Assembly: GCF_003018255.1 (NCBI RefSeq)
Contig: NZ_CP027440.1
Reading direction: 5' to 3' (one strand)
Length of the DNA stretch: 64,000 nucleotides
Origin: Escherichia coli
GTDB taxonomy: Bacteria; Pseudomonadota; Gammaproteobacteria; Enterobacterales; Enterobacteriaceae
Shown: positions 53,193 to 63,653 of the stretch, piece by piece
Layout: each line of letters begins with the position of its first letter
Numbering within the stretch: position 1 is the first letter of the stretch
Made by a program: the position numbers and the translations under genes
The notes under the pieces: model-generated
What the model was told of the DNA's origin: nothing
The model's database searches: none
What the model saw: only the letters and a program-made list of their open reading frames with translations

Positions 53193-54599
53193 TTAATCCA
53201 GCCATTCGGTATGGAACACACCTTCTTTATCAATGCGCTTATAAGTATGCGCACCGAAATAGTCACGCTGTGCCTGGATCAGATTCGCAGGCAAAACAGC
53301 GGCGCGGTAGCTGTCATAATAGGCAACCGCAGCGGCGAATGTCGGAACCGGGATACCGTTCTGCACTGCATAAGCAACGACATCACGCAGCGCCTGCTGA
53401 TAGTCATCGGCGATTTGCTTAAAGTACGGAGCCAGCAGCAGGTTAGCGATCTGCGGATTTTCGGCGTATGCATCGGTGATTTTCTGCAGGAACTGCGCAC
53501 GGATGATGCAGCCAGCACGGAAAATCTTCGCGATTTCGCCGTAGTTCAGATCCCAGTTGTATTCTTCAGACGCAGCACGCAACTGAGAGAAGCCCTGAGC
53601 GTAAGAAACGATTTTGCCCAGATAAAGCGCACGACGAACTTTTTCGATAAACTCAGCCTTATCGCCTGCTGGCTGTGCTTGCGGGCCAGAGAGAACTTTA
53701 GATGCGGCAACACGCTGATCTTTCAGAGAAGAGATATAACGTGCAAACACAGACTCGGTAATCAGCGACAGCGGTTCGCCGAGATCAAGCGCACTCTGGC
53801 TGGTCCATTTGCCCGTACCTTTGTTTGCTGCTTCATCCAGAATCACATCAACCAGGTAGTTACCGTCTTCATCTTTTTTGGTGAAGATATCTTTGGTGAT
53901 GTCGATCAGGTAGCTGCTCAGTTCACCGTTATTCCACTCGGTAAACGTCTGCGCCAGTTCTTCGTTGGAAAGATTCAGGCCACCTTTAAGCAGAGAATAG
54001 GCTTCAGCAATCAGCTGCATATCGCCGTATTCAATACCGTTGTGAACCATCTTCACATAGTGACCTGCACCATCGGCACCGATATAGGTAACGCATGGCT
54101 CACCGTCTTCAGCTACTGCGGCGATTTTGGTCAGGATCGGCGCAACCAGTTCATAGGCTTCTTTCTGCCCACCAGGCATAATGGAAGGACCTTTCAGCGC
54201 GCCTTCTTCACCACCGGAGACACCGGTACCAATGAAGTTAAAGCCTTCGGCAGAAAGCTCACGGTTACGACGAATGGTGTCCTGGAAGAAGGTATTACCA
54301 CCATCAATGATGATGTCACCTTTATCGAGGTATGGCTTGAGGGAATCAATAGCAGCATCCGTGCCTGCACCTGCTTTCACCATTAACAGGATGCGACGAG
54401 GCGTTTCCAGAGATTCAACAAACTCTTTCACCGTATAGTAAGGAACCAGTTTCTTGCCTGGATTTTCGGCAATCACTTCTTCGGTCTTTTCACGGGAACG
54501 GTTGAAAATAGAGACGGTATAACCACGGCTTTCGATATTGAGCGCAAGGTTGCGCCCCATCACTGCCATACCGACGACACCGATCTGTTGCTTTGACAT
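53193..54599 (-). CDS. gnd: 6-phosphogluconate dehydrogenase (decarboxylating)
   Basis: 468 aa ([27 protein letters not shown]...). Confidence 0.95.
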
Positions 54600-54706: not shown

Positions 54707-55723
54707 TCACTCAGAATATCCATTCGGATTTTTATTTTGCCATCTCCAAGCATCAGTAATCATATCCTCAAGTGTACGCTTTGCTTCCCAATGAAGCTCT
54801 TTAATAGCTAAATCTGGTTTTGACCAACATTCAGCGATATCTCCAAGCCTTCGCTCAGAAATAACATAAGGTATTTTTATTCCGGTTATTTTTTGAAAGG
54901 CATCAATAATCTCTTTTACTGAATATCCTTTACCTGTGCCTAGGTTATAATAACGTAACCCACCGTATATATTTTGTTTTTTTAGCGCTGCAATATGACC
55001 TTCCGCTAAGTCCATAACATGTATGTAATCTCTAACTCCGGTGCCATCAACCGTAGGATAATCCCCCCCATATATGGTCAACTTCTCAAGTTTCCCAACA
55101 GCAACCTGTGTTAAATAGGGAAAAAGGTTGCTTGGTACACCATTAGGATCCTCACCAATTAAACCAGAATAATGTGCGCCTACAGGATTAAAATATCTCA
55201 AGCAAGTTGCATTAAATTTAAATTCATAATTGGTTATATCTTCAAGCATTCTTTCAACAATATATTTTGTCGTCCCATATGGATTTGTTGTTCCTCCTGT
55301 ACTGCAATTTTCGTGCACCGGAATAGCTGTAGGATTGCCATATACTGTTGCGGATGAACTAAAAATAAAATTGTAAATTTTATTTTTTAACATCGAGTCA
55401 ATTAAATGCAAAGTTCCAATAACATTATTCTCATAATACTGAATGGGTTTTTTAATTGATTCCGAAACAGATTTTAGCGCAGCAAAATGAATAACAGCCT
55501 CGATATCATTATTTGCAAACACAGAATCAATCAAGTCAATGTTGCGTATATCTCCTTCATATATAATTATTTTCTTAGAAGTCAAATACTCCACTCTTTT
55601 TAAAGCAATCTTTGAAGAGTTACTAAAATTATCAATAACAATAACATCATAGTTATGATTTAAAAGTTGCAATACTGTATGTGAACCAATATATCCTGCC
55701 CCACCAGTCACGAGAACAGCCAT
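54707..55723 (-). CDS. UDP-hexose 4-epimerase (GalE/Gne family) of the O-antigen cluster
   Basis: 338-aa SDR protein with VTGGAGYIGSH and YxxxK; low-GC; next to gnd. Could be a UDP-GlcNAc/GalNAc epimerase. Confidence 0.8.
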   Translation of the reverse strand: MAVLVTGGAGYIGSHTVLQLLNHNYDVIVIDNFSNSSKIALKRVEYLTSKKIIIYEGDIRNIDLIDSVFANNDIEAVIHFAALKSVSESIKKPIQYYENNVIGTLHLIDSMLKNKIYNFIFSSSATVYGNPTAIPVHENCSTGGTTNPYGTTKYIVERMLEDITNYEFKFNATCLRYFNPVGAHYSGLIGEDPNGVPSNLFPYLTQVAVGKLEKLTIYGGDYPTVDGTGVRDYIHVMDLAEGHIAALKKQNIYGGLRYYNLGTGKGYSVKEIIDAFQKITGIKIPYVISERRLGDIAECWSKPDLAIKELHWEAKRTLEDMITDAWRWQNKNPNGYSE

Positions 55724-55756: not shown

Positions 55757-56734
55757 CTATCTGTTTTTTACTTGATACAAGAAATGATAAACTGGAAAGA
55801 ATTTTTTAATCAACAACAAGCGAAACGCATAATACATACCAAAAGCCTGTTCGCAATTCATTTTCTGCTCTATGTTTTTCGGCAAAACTATTTTATTTTT
55901 TTTACATAAAAGGAATATATAAATCAAAAAATCATTGTATCTTTTCTTAAGATAATACTTGACCAATCTATTCTTTGTTGTTTGTATAATACATCTATAG
56001 GTTTTTAATACTTCCAGATAACCAATTATATTGCGAGAGCTAATTTTACTTGTCATTATTGAGTTTTCCCTTACCCTTCGGTAAAAATAAATCTCATCGG
56101 TACAATAACACAACTTAGAATCTAAAATAATCCTAGGTAAGTACTCTTCATCCTCATGAACTATATTTTTAAAAAATGAATTTCGCATTAATAATTCAGT
56201 TCTAAATACATTAATGCAAACAGATGAAAAGTAAGAATTGGTTGAAAATAATCTTTCTAAAAAAACATCACCAGACTTACAAATTTGAAATTTAGTTCGT
56301 TTATATGAAGGAATTTTACCTGCCAAATTAGAAGGGAGCCCTAATATTGATCCTGAAAATGCTATAATGTCTAACTCTTTATAATTAGTCAATATTTCAT
56401 TAATATCCCTTATAAACATTGGACTCAAAGCATCATCAGAGTCAAAAAAATAGACGTATGGTGTGCTAACTTTTGTCAGACCATAATTCCTAGCACTGCT
56501 TAAACCACCATTTTCTTTAGAAAATATCTTATAATTATCCTTACCCTCTATTCTTTTTTTAAGGAGAGGTATCGAATCATCACTAGAACCATCATCCACG
56601 ATGATAACTGAATGTGGTTGCATAGACTGATTTATAATAGAATCTATAGCCTCAACAATATAATCTTGGACATTGTACACAGGCATAACAATTGATATTA
56701 ATTTGGAAATCTCATTTTCTTTTTGGCAAAGCAT
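55757..56734 (-). CDS. Glycosyltransferase family 2
   Basis: 325 aa with N-terminal GT-A motif ISIVMPVYN...VIIVDDGSSD; low GC. Confidence 0.8.
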   Translation of the reverse strand: MLCQKENEISKLISIVMPVYNVQDYIVEAIDSIINQSMQPHSVIIVDDGSSDDSIPLLKKRIEGKDNYKIFSKENGGLSSARNYGLTKVSTPYVYFFDSDDALSPMFIRDINEILTNYKELDIIAFSGSILGLPSNLAGKIPSYKRTKFQICKSGDVFLERLFSTNSYFSSVCINVFRTELLMRNSFFKNIVHEDEEYLPRIILDSKLCYCTDEIYFYRRVRENSIMTSKISSRNIIGYLEVLKTYRCIIQTTKNRLVKYYLKKRYNDFLIYIFLLCKKNKIVLPKNIEQKMNCEQAFGMYYAFRLLLIKKFFPVYHFLYQVKNR

Positions 56735-58145
56735 TGTTTAATAATCCCACAATGGTATTTTTATCAATAATAAACATAAGACAAACATAACTCCCTGCAC
56801 CTATAACGATATAATAAATCAAAGATAATAATTCCATATTATTAGATTGAGTTATAAAATTATTTTTAGCAATCAGTATCAAAATTAGCATGCAAACACT
56901 ACAAAACAAAGGTTTACATGTTATACATAAAATGTTTTTTATGTTACCTTGGAGCAATCTCATGACGTAATAAAAGCAGATGTAAAATATTAATACATTC
57001 GCACAAAGATATAACTGGCAGAATATAACGATATTGAAGCATGCCCCAATAACAAATGACATAACTTGAATTATTGCACTCACACAACCAATCCTTGCCA
57101 GCAACTTAACGTTACCTAAAGATAAAAAAACTACTCCTGTAGTGCTCGTGAGTGCTTGGATAATCCCAACAGGTGCCAACCATTTTAAAAGAAGAGCAGC
57201 ATTATCCCAATTTTTACCAAACAGAAAAAAAACTAACTCGTTACTTAACGAAGCGAGCCCAATCATGGCAGGAATTGACAAAACTGCAATGAACTTTAGC
57301 GAGTCTAAATATATTCTTTTTTTTGTTATAATATCTTTTGAATGACTTAGCTTAGGCAATAAAGCTCTATTAAATATATAAGTTATATTTTGAACTGGAA
57401 ATAACATAAGTCTATATGCTAATGCATAATTACCTAAAACATACTGCCCAAAAATTTTTCCAACTATAATATTATCAGCGTTACGTGAGAAATAATTCAC
57501 CATATTAAATGACATTACATTAACACAATAGCCAAATATTAATTTTATATATTTCATCCGCCAAGAAAATTTATATTTTCTTCTATTTTTAAGGCTCAAT
57601 AAAAAAACAACAATAACTGCATACAAAAGGGCCTGTAGAGACACAGCATAAAGTCCAAAGCCCATGGCAATTACTATAAAAACAACAATGATTGAAATCG
57701 ATAATGATATCAACTCTATGAGAGCAGTAATATTGAACTGTTGGTTTCGTTCTAATAAAGCAAAATTAAAAGCAATAAAACTTTGTAAAGGAAATGAAAA
57801 AGAGATGATCAATATTAATAGAAACAACCTTGTGTCATTGTAAAAAAGGGATATTGGATAAGCTAATAATGTCATTACGATAAAAATAACGAGACCGCTT
57901 ATAAAGTTTAATGTGTATGTGGATTTAATAAAATTTTCACTTATTCTTCTCCGTTGAATTAATATTGATGACGTCCCCATATCTCTAAAGAGCATGGCAA
58001 ATGCAGCCACTACGCTTACAATGGAAATCAAACCATAGTCATAAGGCGTTAAATAACGAGCCAGTACAAAGATCAAAACTAATTGGCTCAGAGCTCTTGC
58101 AATTTGAGATAAAGCGACCCATTTTACTCCTGTTATCAAAAGCAT
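56712..58145 (-). CDS. wzx: O-antigen flippase Wzx (MOP superfamily)
   Basis: 477-aa polytopic protein with about 12 predicted TM segments, typical Wzx size and hydropathy; low GC. Confidence 0.75.
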   Translation of the reverse strand: MLLITGVKWVALSQIARALSQLVLIFVLARYLTPYDYGLISIVSVVAAFAMLFRDMGTSSILIQRRRISENFIKSTYTLNFISGLVIFIVMTLLAYPISLFYNDTRLFLLILIISFSFPLQSFIAFNFALLERNQQFNITALIELISLSISIIVVFIVIAMGFGLYAVSLQALLYAVIVVFLLSLKNRRKYKFSWRMKYIKLIFGYCVNVMSFNMVNYFSRNADNIIVGKIFGQYVLGNYALAYRLMLFPVQNITYIFNRALLPKLSHSKDIITKKRIYLDSLKFIAVLSIPAMIGLASLSNELVFFLFGKNWDNAALLLKWLAPVGIIQALTSTTGVVFLSLGNVKLLARIGCVSAIIQVMSFVIGACFNIVIFCQLYLCANVLIFYICFYYVMRLLQGNIKNILCITCKPLFCSVCMLILILIAKNNFITQSNNMELLSLIYYIVIGAGSYVCLMFIIDKNTIVGLLNNALPKRK

Positions 58146-58152
58146 TTTATTA

Positions 58153-59049
58153 TTATCTCACTCTTTTTTTAAAATGGTTTTCATAAACTTTTTGCTTCAA
58201 ATATATAATGCCAGGGAACGCTCTTTTGAGTAGCAACTTAGTTGCAAATAATGTCCAGTATTGTTTTTTTGCTATAAAAGAAAATATAATTTTAATTTTT
58301 AAACATCTTAACATCATTAACCTAAACAGGTTATAATTCTTTGTATCATTGTACATTATATTCTTATATTTAAAATAATACTTCCGATATGCCACATAAT
58401 CTTTAATATTCTTGGTTATTCTAACACCTTCATGAGAAATATCCATATAGTAAGTATTAGCGTTTAACCTCCTGGCACTCCCATAAACTTGAATAAGTTT
58501 AGTCCAAACATCTTGATCTTGTAACCGTTTAAAATCAATAGAAAATCCTCCAACTGATAACAAACGCTCTCGCTCAACTAAAATCTGGTTACCAGCTTCA
58601 TTTTCCTTGAGTATACTTTGTAAATCAATGATACATTCTCTTTGAAATCGTGCATGATTATTTGTTCCAGTCACTATTATATAGTTATCGCAGATAAAGG
58701 AAAATTCCTTGTTATAATGATTAACCAGAATCTGTAACCTATCTTCTTTGAAATAATCATCATCATCCAACCCTGTAATGAAGAAACCTTTTGCATGCTT
58801 TAATCCTCTATTTCTAGAAAAATTAGCCCCCATATTTCTTGGGTTTTTCTTATATATAAAATTCTTAATATTTGGTGTTGCTACTTCTTGCAATTCTTTT
58901 ACAATCAAGTCAACTTCATAACTAGAGTTATCATCGACTACGATTAATTCTATTTTTGAATAAGTTTGATTAAATACTGATAATATTGCTCTGCGCAACA
59001 GCAAAGGGCGATTATAAGATGTTATAAGAACGCTTACTAATTTTTCCAT
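58153..59049 (-). CDS. Glycosyltransferase family 2
   Basis: GT-A motif VSVLITSYNRP...IVVDDNS; probable start MEKLVSV, with the listed ORF extended. Confidence 0.8.
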   Translation of the reverse strand: MEKLVSVLITSYNRPLLLRRAILSVFNQTYSKIELIVVDDNSSYEVDLIVKELQEVATPNIKNFIYKKNPRNMGANFSRNRGLKHAKGFFITGLDDDDYFKEDRLQILVNHYNKEFSFICDNYIIVTGTNNHARFQRECIIDLQSILKENEAGNQILVERERLLSVGGFSIDFKRLQDQDVWTKLIQVYGSARRLNANTYYMDISHEGVRITKNIKDYVAYRKYYFKYKNIMYNDTKNYNLFRLMMLRCLKIKIIFSFIAKKQYWTLFATKLLLKRAFPGIIYLKQKVYENHFKKRVR

Positions 59050-60407
59050 TTCTTTTTCAAAACCATCAACAAAGTAATTATAACCAAAGAATAGATCCAC
59101 AGCGGGAATATGCCATTAAGCCCTGCTCTTGGTAAAAAGCCTATCCTATATGCTGTTATAACTGATAATGCAGTAATATAAAGCCCCTTAGAGTTACCTC
59201 TATTTTCTGCTAAACTTAAAAACACCCCAAATAAGCAAGCAACAATAATCATAGCTCCAACATTTTTATTACACAGCAAAACTATATCATTGACAAAACT
59301 CCAGCCAACACCATAACCACTTTTGAATAACGCTGGATTTAATAAATCGGATAGATACGCAGAAGAGCTATTGTATAATATAGTGTGTTCTGCAAACATG
59401 TTATATATAGCATTAGCTCCAGGGATAAAGTTTTGAGCTAATAAATAGCCAGGAAAATTATCTATATATTTAGTGAAATAGATGACATGTAATGTCACTC
59501 CTTGTTGAAATAAGAATGAGAAGTAATGTTCGAACAAATTTATATTTGAATTACTATAATCCGCTCTAAATAATAACAATGTTTGGGAGAAAACTATAGC
59601 AATACCACCTATTATAACTAACCTAAGGAGGGGTATTTTCTTAATGTACTTATTTCTATACCAAAGATAAAATAAAAAGAATGATAATAATGGACCTCGC
59701 TGACCGATAAAAGCCAACATTAAAGAGTTCATCAATAAAACGCACAGATAAAAATTAGTGTTCTTTTTATTGTCAGTTGATATTGATATAGACAAAAAAA
59801 CAGTCGCTATCGTAATTCCTAAAGAATAAAGATTTGGTATAATACTTCCTTTCTCCAATAATTCTAAATTTTTTGTATAAAATGAAAGATATCCGCCTGA
59901 ATTTACTGCCTCTAAACCTGAATATATATATGGAAAAACAAGGCAACCGACCAAAAATAAAACTGGTCCATTAGGCAACCTCAGATTATATGTTACTACA
60001 TTGACGTTTTTATTCTTATTTTCAATACACTGAGTAAAAAAATACCCTAAAAGAATTGAATATATTATTATCCCAATCGTCAATAACAAATTCACAGAAT
60101 CAAGTGAACTTATAGTCGTGGTATAAAAAAGCGTTACTGTATAGTAATCCATTTCAGAGTATAATAAATATGAAAATATGCGCCCAAAAATAAATATACT
60201 TATTGTCATTATAAAAAGCGATATTATGCTTAGTACCCCTGATAAAAGTGCCGTTTGTAAATATGCAAATGCTATAAATAAAAAACAACTTATTGCTAAT
60301 GTGTAATAGTCAACACTAACAAAACCGGCCTCATTTAATAAATAACCAACAATAAAAAAGGCAATAATAATAGAATCGACGAATACTATTATCGCAGAAT
60401 TATTCAT
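59037..60407 (-). CDS. wzy: O-antigen polymerase Wzy
   Basis: 456-aa very hydrophobic, AT-rich polytopic protein with about 10-12 TM segments, typical of Wzy. Confidence 0.7.
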   Translation of the reverse strand: MNNSAIIVFVDSIIIAFFIVGYLLNEAGFVSVDYYTLAISCFLFIAFAYLQTALLSGVLSIISLFIMTISIFIFGRIFSYLLYSEMDYYTVTLFYTTTISSLDSVNLLLTIGIIIYSILLGYFFTQCIENKNKNVNVVTYNLRLPNGPVLFLVGCLVFPYIYSGLEAVNSGGYLSFYTKNLELLEKGSIIPNLYSLGITIATVFLSISISTDNKKNTNFYLCVLLMNSLMLAFIGQRGPLLSFFLFYLWYRNKYIKKIPLLRLVIIGGIAIVFSQTLLLFRADYSNSNINLFEHYFSFLFQQGVTLHVIYFTKYIDNFPGYLLAQNFIPGANAIYNMFAEHTILYNSSSAYLSDLLNPALFKSGYGVGWSFVNDIVLLCNKNVGAMIIVACLFGVFLSLAENRGNSKGLYITALSVITAYRIGFLPRAGLNGIFPLWIYSLVIITLLMVLKKKWKN

Positions 60408-61177
60408 TTTATTTTTTCCATAAAAAATATCATAAGCCGATAAACAAAGTAGTATAAAGACATTACCATTATTAATAGACTAAGCTCAGAAAGGCTATTT
60501 AAGTATACACATAATGAGGTAAAAAAAATAAAAAGATAATAGCGGCATCTTAACAATGAATGATTTTTAAATAACTCTCGCTGAAAATAATACAACTCAA
60601 ATCTTTTCTCACCACACCTCTCGATCACATTTATAATTGAGAAACATATTGTAAATATTATTATGCTACGCAAATCCCCTGTACAAACAACTAATGGTGA
60701 AGAGTACCTGATTGTAACTAATATAAAATGCAATAAAAGATTTAATCGATTTCTTATTGAATTATATATCGCATACATCGGGATAAGTAACCATGGATAC
60801 CAGAGAAACTCTCCACCTAACTTGTAAACACAAAAAGTGACAACAACAGATACAAATAATCTAAAGATATATATTGTCTTTTTATTACCCTCATAATAGC
60901 GTATTTCTTTTTCAGAAAGCCGCAGAGTAGGTTTTATTTCTTTTTTTATTGTTTCTGCATCATTGTAGATATATCCTAATTCATACAGATTATATGTTAG
61001 TACTATAGTTAATCCCAGTTGCCCCCATAACTCAACACTCTCTTTAGTGCTTTCAAATAAAAAAAACAGCAACAAAACTGGAAATAGATAAATTAGGCAC
61101 CAAGAAATTGTTTTAGCACGCGTTTTAGTTCTTGTTTCAATAAAATATAAAAATGGGATATAAAATTTGCACCACAT
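60404..61177 (-). CDS. Polytopic membrane protein of unknown function (O-antigen cluster)
   Basis: 257-aa hydrophobic protein; start overlaps the stop of the upstream gene by 1 nt (translationally coupled). A weak NDxxTxxxE segment resembles but does not match the UbiA-family NDxxDxxxD motif. Confidence 0.5.
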   Translation of the reverse strand: MWCKFYIPFLYFIETRTKTRAKTISWCLIYLFPVLLLFFLFESTKESVELWGQLGLTIVLTYNLYELGYIYNDAETIKKEIKPTLRLSEKEIRYYEGNKKTIYIFRLFVSVVVTFCVYKLGGEFLWYPWLLIPMYAIYNSIRNRLNLLLHFILVTIRYSSPLVVCTGDLRSIIIFTICFSIINVIERCGEKRFELYYFQRELFKNHSLLRCRYYLFIFFTSLCVYLNSLSELSLLIMVMSLYYFVYRLMIFFMEKIK

Positions 61178-61178
61178 A

Positions 61179-61784
61179 CTACACCTTAATTATTTTTTCA
61201 ATGCCATTTCTTACCCAATAAACAACTGCTTTTTTATTATTAGCCACAGCTATGGCCACATCGCATTTTTTCATCATATTAAGATCACCAAAATTATCAC
61301 TTATCATTGTGAATGATTTATTAACATCACTAATTATATTTATAATATTTTCCTTATTATTTAATAAATCCACTTTTATCTTCCCAGTTGCAACACTATC
61401 AAGATAATCCAAGCAAGTAGCATAAAAACCATTATAGTTAAGTTCTGAATAAAACTCTTCCGCGATGAAATCAAGCGTTGCTGAAACTATATATATCTCA
61501 TCAAAATCTTCCTTTTCAATTAAATTTAATACCGCGTCATTATAATGGCATTCTTTCACAAATATTTTAGCTTGTTTTCGCAGTATAGTTTTGGGAACAC
61601 CTTTAAGTTTTGCTATTGCCCAGCGCCTTAAAAGATCAAATTTCGTGAATTTATAAATTAAATATAAAGAAATAAAAATAAGAGATTTCCTTCTGACATA
61701 ATCAAATCGTTCAAGAAAAGCAAAAGTCGTATTTTCTTTAACCAAAGATCCACATAGATCCAATAATAGAATTTTTTTCTTCAT
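61179..61784 (-). CDS. HAD-superfamily hydrolase-like protein (O-antigen cluster)
   Basis: 201 aa; N-terminal LLLDLCGSL resembles HAD motif I (DxDG[TS]L) but has Cys at the Asp+2 position. Confidence 0.5.
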   Translation of the reverse strand: MKKKILLLDLCGSLVKENTTFAFLERFDYVRRKSLIFISLYLIYKFTKFDLLRRWAIAKLKGVPKTILRKQAKIFVKECHYNDAVLNLIEKEDFDEIYIVSATLDFIAEEFYSELNYNGFYATCLDYLDSVATGKIKVDLLNNKENIINIISDVNKSFTMISDNFGDLNMMKKCDVAIAVANNKKAVVYWVRNGIEKIIKV

Positions 61785-62599
61785 TTGCGTAAGAACTGAT
61801 TATAGATAGATGATAATAATTGTTTAGGTAATAGCCTGACTAATGAACGACCTAAAAATATTAATTTTGCACTTACCCCTTTATTAATGCCTAAATCAAC
61901 AATAAGTTTATAAAGTTCATATTCACTTTTGATATATTTTAATCCTTTTCTTCTATTGATCATTTCTTCGCCGGCACGTGCTAAAACTAATACATCATTA
62001 ACATTATCCATAGCGAAACCTGCGGCATAACAACGAAGCCACAAGTTATAGTCTTCCATAAGATAATGGTGGTTATAACCACCAATCTCAATAATTTTTT
62101 GTTTTCTAAACATTACAGTCATGTGATTAAAAGGATTTCGTTTTGCTATTGTTTTACTAATATTATCATAACCACATGGTACTTTTTTTAATTTACGTAT
62201 ATTGTTTTTTTCTGTAAACTCATCAACTGCCCCGCCAATTATTACTAATTCCGGATTACGAATAAACATCTTTATTTGTTTTTCGAATCGCTCAGGTAGA
62301 CAAATGTCATCAGTATCCATTCGTGCGACCAAATCATTCGAACATGCCTGTAGGCCAGCATTTAATGCCTTACCTAATCCAACATTCTCATTGAGTTCAA
62401 CTATTTTTAAAGGCAATTCTCTATCCCATTTTCTAACTACTCTCCATAATCCATTACTGATCGGACCGTCAATAACTGCAACTACTTCATCGATCATTGT
62501 TTTTTGTATCGCAAGACTTTTAAATGCCTCATCAAGATAAATTTCGTTTTCTTTAAAATATATAGATAATAAAACTGATATTTTTTCTATCTTTTGCAC
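61781..62599 (-). CDS. Glycosyltransferase family 2 (first gene of the O-antigen operon)
   Basis: 272 aa; GT-A-like N-terminus ISVLLSIYF...; the only in-frame start is a GTG at 62597-62599 that lies inside the ops element; contains a DTDD motif. Confidence 0.7.
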   Translation of the reverse strand: MQKIEKISVLLSIYFKENEIYLDEAFKSLAIQKTMIDEVVAVIDGPISNGLWRVVRKWDRELPLKIVELNENVGLGKALNAGLQACSNDLVARMDTDDICLPERFEKQIKMFIRNPELVIIGGAVDEFTEKNNIRKLKKVPCGYDNISKTIAKRNPFNHMTVMFRKQKIIEIGGYNHHYLMEDYNLWLRCYAAGFAMDNVNDVLVLARAGEEMINRRKGLKYIKSEYELYKLIVDLGINKGVSAKLIFLGRSLVRLLPKQLLSSIYNQFLRK

Positions 62600-62759: not shown

Positions 62760-63653
62760 TTATTTTAGCAAAGTATCTTCAATAGCTTTACGGAACTTCG
62801 CCCCTTCTTTCAGGTTGCGTAATCCATACTTCACAAACGCCTGCATATAGCCCATTTTTTTACCACAGTCGTAGCTGTCACCAGTCATCAGCATGGCATC
62901 AACGGACTGTTTTTTCGCCAGTTCGGCAATAGCATCAGTCAGCTGAATACGCCCCCATGCACCAGGTTGAGTGCGTTCAAGTTCCGGCCAAATATCGGCA
63001 GAAAGCACATAGCGACCAACGGCCATGATGTCTGAGTCCAGCGTCTGCGGCTGATCCGGTTTTTCGATAAATTCGACGATGCGGCTGACTTTACCTTCGC
63101 GATCCAGTGGTTCTTTGGTCTGGATGACGGAGTATTCAGAGAGGTCACCCGGCATACGTTTTGCCAGCACCTGACTGCGGCCCGTTTCGTTGAAGCGCGC
63201 AATCATGGCAGCAAGGTTGTAGCGCAGCGGGTCGGCGCTGGCGTCGTCGATCACTACGTCTGGCAGTACCACGACAAATGGGTTGTCACCAATGGCAGGT
63301 CGCGCACATAAAATGGAGTGGCCTAAACCTAAAGGTTCACCCTGACGCACGTTCATAATGGTCACGCCCGGCGGACAGATAGATTGTACTTCCGCCAACA
63401 GTTGACGCTTCACGCGCTGCTCAAGGAGAGATTCTAATTCATAAGAGGTGTCGAAGTGGTTTTCGACCGCGTTCTTGGACGCGTGAGTTACCAGGAGGAT
63501 TTCTTTGATCCCTGCAGCCACAATCTCGTCAACAATGTACTGAATCATTGGCTTGTCGACGATCGGTAGCATCTCTTTGGGAATCGCCTTAGTGGCAGGC
63601 AACATATGCATCCCAAGACCTGCTACCGGTATAACTGCTTTTAAATTCGTCAT
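62760..63653 (-). CDS. galF: UTP--glucose-1-phosphate uridylyltransferase-like regulatory subunit
   Basis: 297 aa ([30 protein letters not shown]...). Confidence 0.92.

Follow-up and report, generated by a model that had tools for sequence, protein, structure and literature searches.

The 64,000-nucleotide stretch of Escherichia coli contig NZ_CP027440.1 analysed here (the window) contains an O-antigen cluster in which two adjacent minus-strand genes, together spanning 60404-61784, encode a 201-aa HAD-like protein and a 257-aa membrane protein; a preliminary description of the sequence had singled them out as a functional pair outside the minimal Wzx/Wzy gene set, and both open reading frames (ORFs) are present exactly as it described. 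Our principal conclusion, which we put at a probability of about 0.6 from sequence comparison and structural modelling, is that the two genes together encode a ribofuranosyltransferase of two components for the O unit of E. coli O185. The membrane protein, WbuO, would bind Mg-phosphoribosyl pyrophosphate (PRPP) at the cytoplasm-facing residues N72-D73...E80, N139/R142, E186 and R210, and transfer ribose-5-phosphate to a sugar hydroxyl of the undecaprenyl-diphosphate (Und-PP)-linked O-unit intermediate, with loss of pyrophosphate; the product of this step would be a beta-linked ribofuranose-5-phosphate, whose 5-phosphate would be stripped by the adjacent WbuN-like phosphatase of HAD subfamily IB (HAD-IB). 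The GT2 glycosyltransferases (GTs) of the cluster would then complete the O unit, Wzx flip it and Wzy polymerise it.

The cluster holding both ORFs is, on sequence, the E. coli O185 O-antigen cluster, bounded by galF and gnd: megablast finds it, at 98.0–98.6% identity, in six complete E. coli genomes, where wzx and wzy carry the annotation 'O185 family'. Clustering at 90% identity groups the membrane protein with BAQ02047.1, the reference protein of O185 that UniRef calls 'WbuO'; it has 98% identity to the cluster representative, and is thereby identified as the O185 WbuO. BAQ02047.1 is encoded immediately before the reference O185 Wzy, BAQ02048.1, which CAZy places in family GT134. Genes named wbuN ('phosphoserine phosphatase') and wbuO have been described for E. 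coli O114, E. coli 101-1 and Salmonella Pomona O28; the wbuO of the O114 type was reported to have no conserved domain and eight transmembrane (TM) segments, and its 'function has not been determined'. The O114 genes (AY573377) resemble the O185 pair in that a HAD gene precedes that of an eight-TM protein, in the same order and inside a Wzx/Wzy cluster. A homologous pair lies in locus L062, a cluster assigned to the 'O153/O178 family' by the annotation of its wzx and wzy, and our locus survey found a further one in another E. coli O type, over whose equivalent region only a 'HAD family hydrolase' and an 'O-antigen polymerase' are annotated. Serogroups were identified through protein clusters because distant blastn of the Citrobacter youngae pair against E. 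coli genomes found no match, nor did an Enterobacter-type locus (L008) match E. coli. The wbuN/wbuO genes of O114, O5, O153/O178 and Pomona O28 are direct homologues of the O185 pair, although between serogroups identity is only 36–45%, the range that O185 WbuO shows with its homologues in O153/O178, the other E. coli O type and Enterobacter. The preliminary description could match neither gene to a characterised O-antigen gene, and held that clear homology to such genes would overturn its reading. Named matches do exist, but they were named without functional characterisation and so that objection applies only by half.

What is common to the serogroups carrying the pair is D-ribofuranose (D-Ribf). 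According to the list in a 2020 review of E. coli O antigens, D-Ribf is present in O5, O20, O54, O105, O114, O153, O178, O183 and O185; five of these nine (O5, O114, O153, O178 and O185) carry the pair, O20, O54 and O105 lying outside our comparison and O183 having instead wbaM, according to the review a putative phosphoribosyltransferase. For these clusters the review states that neither an activated Ribf donor nor genes for its pathway or its transfer are known, and it counts O5, O153 and O178 as one glycosyltransferase short of what their structures need. In the O5 cluster a HAD-like gene, ORF9, is followed by a wbuO labelled 'serine transferase' and annotated at 8628-8879, only 252 bp, after a gap of 540 bp (PMC4309606, Table 2); this wbuO has probably been truncated in annotation, a possible reason for the count of one transferase too few in O5. 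Hafnia alvei PCM1222, with Ribf in its O antigen, is also one GT short and has a HAD and 'acyltransferase' pair, which we liken to that of O185 by its labels only. The O185 cluster has both wzx and wzy, and its product is listed as D-Ribf-containing; because it has three GT2 genes and the pair, we predict from the gene content that its unit has five residues, one of them Ribf. The O153/O178 cluster holds three GTs as well as the HAD/WbuO pair within its galF–gnd bounds, which together with WecA would fit an O153/O178 unit that we take to be of five sugars.

The published labels on wbuN and wbuO (phosphoserine phosphatase, acyltransferase, serine transferase) conflict with one another, and bear on a different explanation, raised as one of two possibilities by the preliminary description, in which the role of the pair is to add or process an acyl, seryl, glycerol phosphate or similar group that is not a sugar. 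Homologues do carry the labels 'O-antigen acyltransferase' and 'serine transferase', the HAD protein is nearest to phosphoserine phosphatases, and an N-acetyl-L-seryl group is present in O114. The labels, however, are annotation by guesswork, as the quoted admission about wbuO function illustrates; among the review's examples of amino-acid substituents serine occurs in O114 alone, yet O5, O153/O178 and O185 also have the pair; it is Ribf that the pair-carrying serogroups have in common; and the modelled fold of the membrane protein is that of pyrophosphate-displacing enzymes. Pfam gave no match to this protein even at E<=10 and NCBIfam none, acyltransferase models included, and on that ground the acyltransferase and serine-transferase labels were dropped. 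We regard a non-sugar role as very improbable.

Structural modelling gives the membrane protein a fold and a topology that fit a cytoplasm-facing enzyme of the PRPP-transferase kind. The AlphaFold model and the positive-inside rule agree on eight TM helices, with N- and C-termini both cytoplasmic, bearing out its earlier description as polytopic; mean lysine plus arginine per segment is 1.7–3.6 on the cytoplasmic side against 0.1–0.2 in the periplasmic loops. The invariant or near-invariant polar residues of the family all lie at cytoplasmic helix ends: E66, N72, D73, E80 and R86 follow TM2, N139 and R142 follow TM4, E186 and R192 follow TM6, and R210 and R247 are conserved too. The PRPP pool is cytoplasmic, on the side these residues face. 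From general knowledge and the published description of C. youngae ORF15, we take N72-D73-x-x-T-x-x-x-E80 to stand at the site of the UbiA motif NDxxDxxxD, and E186 at that of the second acidic motif of UbiA enzymes. In fold comparison the WbuO model scored 10.1 with AfUbiA (4tq3), 9.9 with UBIAD1, 9.7 with the mycobacterial decaprenyl-phosphate phosphoribosyltransferase (8j8j), 9.4 with DGGGP synthase and 8–10 with soluble trans-prenyl synthases; Foldseek probabilities were 0.94 (8j8j) and 0.92 (4tq3). The modelled fold is thus of the UbiA/isoprenoid-synthase type, a remote relationship and one by fold alone.

The 201-aa protein is a HAD enzyme of subfamily IB, weakly recognised by standard sequence models and more firmly by its own predicted structure. 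NCBIfam models TIGR01490 (HAD-IB; E 7.6e-9) and TIGR01488 match below their cut-offs, and the Pfam match, to PF12710, is weak (E 0.0019); a single-sequence search of the PDB with phmmer found nothing, whereas a profile search reached Methanocaldococcus jannaschii phosphoserine phosphatase 1f5s at E 7e-9 and otherwise returned phosphoserine phosphatases and P-type ATPase fragments only. The AlphaFold model (pLDDT 90) matches HAD-IB structures of phosphoserine-phosphatase type in Foldseek at E 1e-9 to 1e-11, the best being SerB-type phosphatases, 3fvv and cytosolic 5'-nucleotidase III; it has a helical insert (C1 cap) between motifs I and II, and SerB-type structures align with it at a TM-score of ~0.7. 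Motifs II (S101), III (K144) and IV (D163/D167) of the subfamily are present, and the catalytic set D9, T13, S101, K144, D163 and D167 is kept across 57 partner HADs, with the nucleophile D9 invariant. Canonical motif I, DxDx(T/V), is not kept: the protein reads D-L-C-G-S, with the nucleophilic Asp retained. The Cys at Asp+2 (C11) that the preliminary description remarked on in DLCGSL is real and is unusual for a HAD phosphatase at this general-acid position; since Cys occupies it in 50 of 56 partner HADs, with Asp in the other 6, DLCGSL is a family signature rather than a local oddity. The earlier HAD-like assignment of the protein therefore stands. Word-index homologue searches with the HAD returned single-domain HADs only, with no link to the PRP domains that are fused to gPRT or UbiA partners.

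HAD and WbuO form an obligate and widely conserved two-gene module. A WbuO profile built from 21 homologues found, among 1.84 billion proteins, 903 representative family members at E<=1e-3, of which 427 also pass E<=1e-30, almost all of them 240–290 aa long; these homologues and the conserved synteny rule out a chance ORF. A scan of one genome per species gave 52 loci, from Enterobacterales, Pasteurellaceae, Acinetobacter, many Bacteroidales, Clostridium and Treponema, and further from Helicobacter, Paenibacillus, Pelagibacter, Chitinophagaceae, one archaeal metagenome-assembled genome (MAG) and one MAG of the candidate phyla radiation (CPR). Searched with custom hidden Markov models, 47 of the 52 have a HAD of the same subfamily directly upstream of WbuO and on its strand; in three more (L048, L051 and L060) the two are one chain, with the HAD N-terminal to the membrane domain, and two further metagenome proteins (the 467-aa P0087; L005) show this fusion as well. 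In these natural fusions the soluble HAD stands at the cytoplasmic N-terminus of WbuO. In Paludibacteraceae MAGs the HAD instead forms the C-terminal part of a GT4 glycosyltransferase whose gene lies directly upstream of WbuO, as seen in a Pfam scan of two loci, with a third similar by ORF size (Table 1). The P0087 fusion lies on a 4.5-kb contig beside a thiamine-pyrophosphate-dependent enzyme and a luciferase-like monooxygenase, with no obvious polysaccharide context. Two entries very close to O185 WbuO come from distant hosts, namely a protein 98% identical to it on the 4.7-kb contig NZ_JAGHEW010000383.1 (L010, a 'Thomasclavelia sp.' Firmicutes MAG) and WP_265610815.1, a partial 'Campylobacter jejuni' protein that shares its 90% cluster; for both, mis-binning or contamination seems likelier than transfer.

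On how the ribose would reach the glycan, the nearest competitor is a lipid-donor route, in which WbuO is a divergent PPPRS/DPPRS enzyme making undecaprenyl phosphate (Und-P)-ribose-5-phosphate from PRPP, the HAD converts this to Und-P-Ribf, and some other enzyme adds Ribf to the O antigen. C. youngae ORF15 is the closest characterised analogue in gene logic, and the HAD–WbuO fusions keep its N-to-C order; the DPPRS structure 8j8j is among the top fold matches; and polyprenyl phosphate is the type of acceptor expected for a UbiA-fold enzyme. The partners of such a route are nevertheless missing: the galF–gnd interval encodes no GT-C enzyme and no second flippase (MATE or SMR), either in the window or in the related enterobacterial clusters L002, L008 and L062, Wzx, Wzy and WbuO being the only polytopic proteins there in all four, and the C. 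youngae ATCC 29220 locus has, besides WbuO, wzx and wzy only. The GT counts leave no transferase free to use an Und-P-Ribf donor, and the known three-component systems yield alpha side chains. By sequence WbuO itself resembles neither UbiA nor PPPRS enzymes: of the traits of that group it has the modelled fold, and lacks a match to Pfam UbiA, an intact NDxxDxxxD motif and the ninth TM helix.

The structure of the O5 antigen is informative here. Its Ribf is beta-linked and internal and bears Quip3NAc on O3, and so must already have been added when a cytoplasmic nucleotide-sugar GT acts, which disagrees with periplasmic addition after polymerisation. We prefer direct transfer in the cytoplasm, onto the Und-PP-linked O unit, to a lipid-linked donor because the bounded galF–gnd clusters have neither GT-C nor second flippase, because no GT is left over for a lipid donor, because of this O5 linkage, and because fusion to a GT4 connects the HAD phosphatase with chain assembly in the cytoplasm. 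For the first and third of these reasons the periplasmic three-component route was set aside as our principal reading, and we consider the divergent PPPRS/DPPRS explanation unlikely. Direct transfer agrees with the earlier suggestion of a lipid-linked step to the extent that the membrane protein probably acts while the O unit is lipid-linked; the companion suggestion, of a non-sugar substituent, fares badly given the Ribf common to these serogroups.

The pair might, alternatively, handle a non-glycosidic step, for example polyprenyl (di)phosphate recycling or prenyl transfer, with the Ribf enzyme encoded elsewhere. The fold of the membrane protein is common to prenyl-diphosphate-binding enzymes, a HAD could act on a lipid phosphate, and a few WbuO members, as at L005, lie outside obvious polysaccharide loci; but the pair sits inside serotype-specific clusters and varies with serotype at the divergence given above, where a housekeeping role would not be cluster-specific, and it is found in the Ribf serogroups examined and accounts for their missing GT. 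This explanation seems to us improbable.

Several observations weigh against the pair being a ribofuranosyltransferase, or against parts of that proposal. Neither phmmer nor a WbuO profile of 144 sequences, the latter even at E<=10, found a sequence match in the PDB; the Foldseek E-values of the WbuO matches exceed 0.1, and soluble prenyl synthases score as high against the model as UbiA enzymes do. The motif NDxxDxxxD is altered in WbuO to N72-D73-x-x-T76-x-x-x-E80, with position 75 sometimes Glu in the family, and we know of no UbiA-superfamily enzyme that glycosylates a sugar hydroxyl. On the phosphatase side, Cys replaces the general-acid Asp+2 in most members, the closest relatives are phosphoserine phosphatases, and the Ribf transferase 7SHG is neither among the sequence matches of the HAD nor in its Foldseek top 50. 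The presence of Ribf in O185 is taken here from the review's list of serogroups, and we found no biochemical or genetic test of WbuN or WbuO members in the literature.

More broadly, WbuO may found an unclassified family, of at least 903 representatives, of UbiA-fold glycosyltransferases that ribosylate lipid-linked oligosaccharide directly from PRPP, a generalisation for which we see even odds. On the same balance of evidence WbuO could be the missing Ribf transferase of Wzx/Wzy systems and the first glycan glycosyltransferase of the UbiA superfamily, with a partner HAD having Cys for the general-acid Asp; equally finely poised is the reach of the family in such a reading, through Proteobacteria, Bacteroidota, Firmicutes and Spirochaetes to archaeal and CPR MAGs. 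The logic of PRPP transfer followed by dephosphorylation is already known; what would be new is the transferase family, unclassified, with a fold unlike that of gPRT and tied to PPPRS only remotely, by fold. We did not find WbuN/WbuO named as a Ribf transferase in the searchable literature, although Kelly et al. (2022) may already propose the pair; the Whitfield group, which took the PRP domain for its search marker, noted 'sequence-based outliers', and stated that PRPP-using enzymes of their 2022 paper account for every beta-Ribf residue.

If the proposal is true, it closes the Ribf-transferase gap of the 2020 review for O5, O114, O153/O178 and O185, and extends to many capsule and O-antigen loci of Enterobacter, Citrobacter, Morganella, Vibrio, Acinetobacter, Pasteurellaceae, Bacteroidales and clostridia. 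It would also supply a sequence marker by which to predict ribofuranose in unknown glycans and a part for glycoengineering Ribf-containing vaccine antigens, extend the UbiA fold to a new class of acceptor, and correct misleading annotations, the membrane gene being unannotated in some RefSeq genomes. In strain MB10 (NZ_CP073988.1; L001 8001-8774), for instance, the intact 257-aa ORF has no RefSeq/PGAP annotation; because intact membrane ORFs are left unannotated in this way, the family is under-called in public records.

The remaining genes of the cluster (Table 1) are those that the preliminary description listed (wzx, wzy, three GT2 genes and an epimerase), as confirmed by ORFs, NCBIfam and RefSeq. 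The order is galF, GT2, HAD, membrane gene, wzy, GT2, wzx, GT2, galE/gne, gnd, and G+C is ~0.29 across the galF–gnd block against ~0.5 in the flanks. An ATGA overlap joins the stop of the first GT2 gene to the HAD start, one base separates the HAD stop from the ATG of the membrane gene, and the wzy start overlaps the stop of the membrane gene, again as ATGA. For the other two GT2 genes the longest-ORF start runs into the gene upstream, by 64 nt into wzy and by 23 nt into wzx respectively, and RefSeq calls shorter products (298 aa against 315 aa; 309 aa against 325 aa); for these reasons the real starts of both are probably internal to the longest ORFs. In O185 genomes gnu, for the Und-PP-GlcNAc 4-epimerase, lies upstream of galF (L001 11482-12477), just past the window end; gnu there and galE/gne inside the cluster suggest, as far as gene content goes, GalNAc as the first O185 sugar, with Gal or GalNAc elsewhere in the unit.

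Table 1. Genes of the O185 cluster in the window, and single-chain fusions of the HAD protein at other loci (positions of fusions are those of the locus named).
Feature	Position	Strand	Basis or remarks
galF, upstream cluster boundary	62760..63653	-	ORF; RefSeq annotation of homologous locus
GT2 glycosyltransferase, first after galF	61781..62599	-	NCBIfam GT2-type matches; RefSeq 'glycosyltransferase'
WbuN-like HAD-IB phosphatase (predicted), 201 aa	61179..61784	-	ORF, NCBIfam, Pfam, profile match, AlphaFold; begins MKKKILLLDLCGSL
WbuO-family membrane protein, 257 aa, 8 TM, remote UbiA-type fold (modelled)	60404..61177	-	
Wzy O-antigen polymerase (O185 family)	59037..60407	-	TIGR04370; RefSeq 'O185 family O-antigen polymerase'
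GT2 glycosyltransferase	58153..59100	-	NCBIfam WcaA-like match; RefSeq 298 aa, ORF 315 aa
Wzx flippase (O185 family)	56712..58145	-	NF007773 MOP flippase, E 1e-63; RefSeq 'O185 family O-antigen flippase'
GT2 glycosyltransferase	55757..56734	-	NCBIfam GT2 matches; RefSeq 'glycosyltransferase family A protein'
GalE/Gne-type UDP-hexose 4-epimerase	54707..55723	-	NF007956 and TIGR01179, both above cut-off
gnd, downstream cluster boundary	53193..54599	-	ORF; RefSeq annotation
HAD(N)–WbuO(C) single-chain fusion	L005 2688-4091		P0087
HAD(N)–WbuO(C) single-chain fusion	L048 941-2275		
HAD(N)–WbuO(C) single-chain fusion	L051 6503-7789		
HAD(N)–WbuO(C) single-chain fusion	L060 1340-2779		
GT4–HAD fusion, Paludibacteraceae	L041 5002-6963		Pfam
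GT4–HAD fusion, Paludibacteraceae	L038 363-2036		Pfam
Like the GT4–HAD fusions, Paludibacteraceae	L045 5106-6929		ORF size only

Two routes to glycan-bound ribofuranose are established. In one, a soluble cytoplasmic gPRT moves ribose-5-phosphate onto the glycan with PRPP as donor, and a PRP of HAD type dephosphorylates it, giving beta-Ribf; in the other, a PRP–PPPRS fusion, the PPPRS part of UbiA fold, makes Und-P-Ribf, which is exported by a MATE flippase and used by a periplasmic GT-C enzyme to add alpha side chains. Among UbiA-fold enzymes, the prenyltransferases (AfUbiA 4TQ3, UBIAD1, DGGGP synthase) have no detectable sequence similarity to WbuO, and a prenyl donor is not what its gene context leads one to expect. 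Nearer in the substrate proposed for WbuO are the mycobacterial DPPRS Rv3806c (8J8J), a PRPP enzyme among the best fold matches of WbuO, and the PRP–PPPRS protein ORF15 of C. youngae O1, in which a HAD phosphatase is N-terminal to a UbiA-fold PRPP enzyme whose acidic motif is cytoplasmic. With the gPRT–PRP enzymes (Klebsiella pneumoniae O4/O7, T. composti 7SHG, Salmonella STM0726, Haemophilus influenzae Bcs3, C. jejuni Cj1432) the pair would, as proposed, share PRPP as donor, beta-Ribf-5-phosphate as intermediate, a HAD-family phosphatase and cytoplasmic action on the growing glycan. It differs from them in that the gPRT fold is soluble while WbuO has an eight-TM, UbiA-type fold (no ORF or domain of soluble gPRT fold occurs in the O185 cluster), in that O185 splits the two activities over separate polypeptides, and in that its HAD is SerB-like, of IB type with Cys at Asp+2; phmmer and profile searches found no sequence link to 7SHG. 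In Cj1432, a GT4–HAD–gPRT protein, the GT4, the HAD phosphatase and the soluble PRPP-dependent ribosyltransferase act in sequence, a domain order mirrored in Paludibacteraceae by the GT4–HAD fusion and the adjoining WbuO. The pair mixes features of both established routes, joining the HAD phosphatase of either to a membrane partner of UbiA fold like that of the second.

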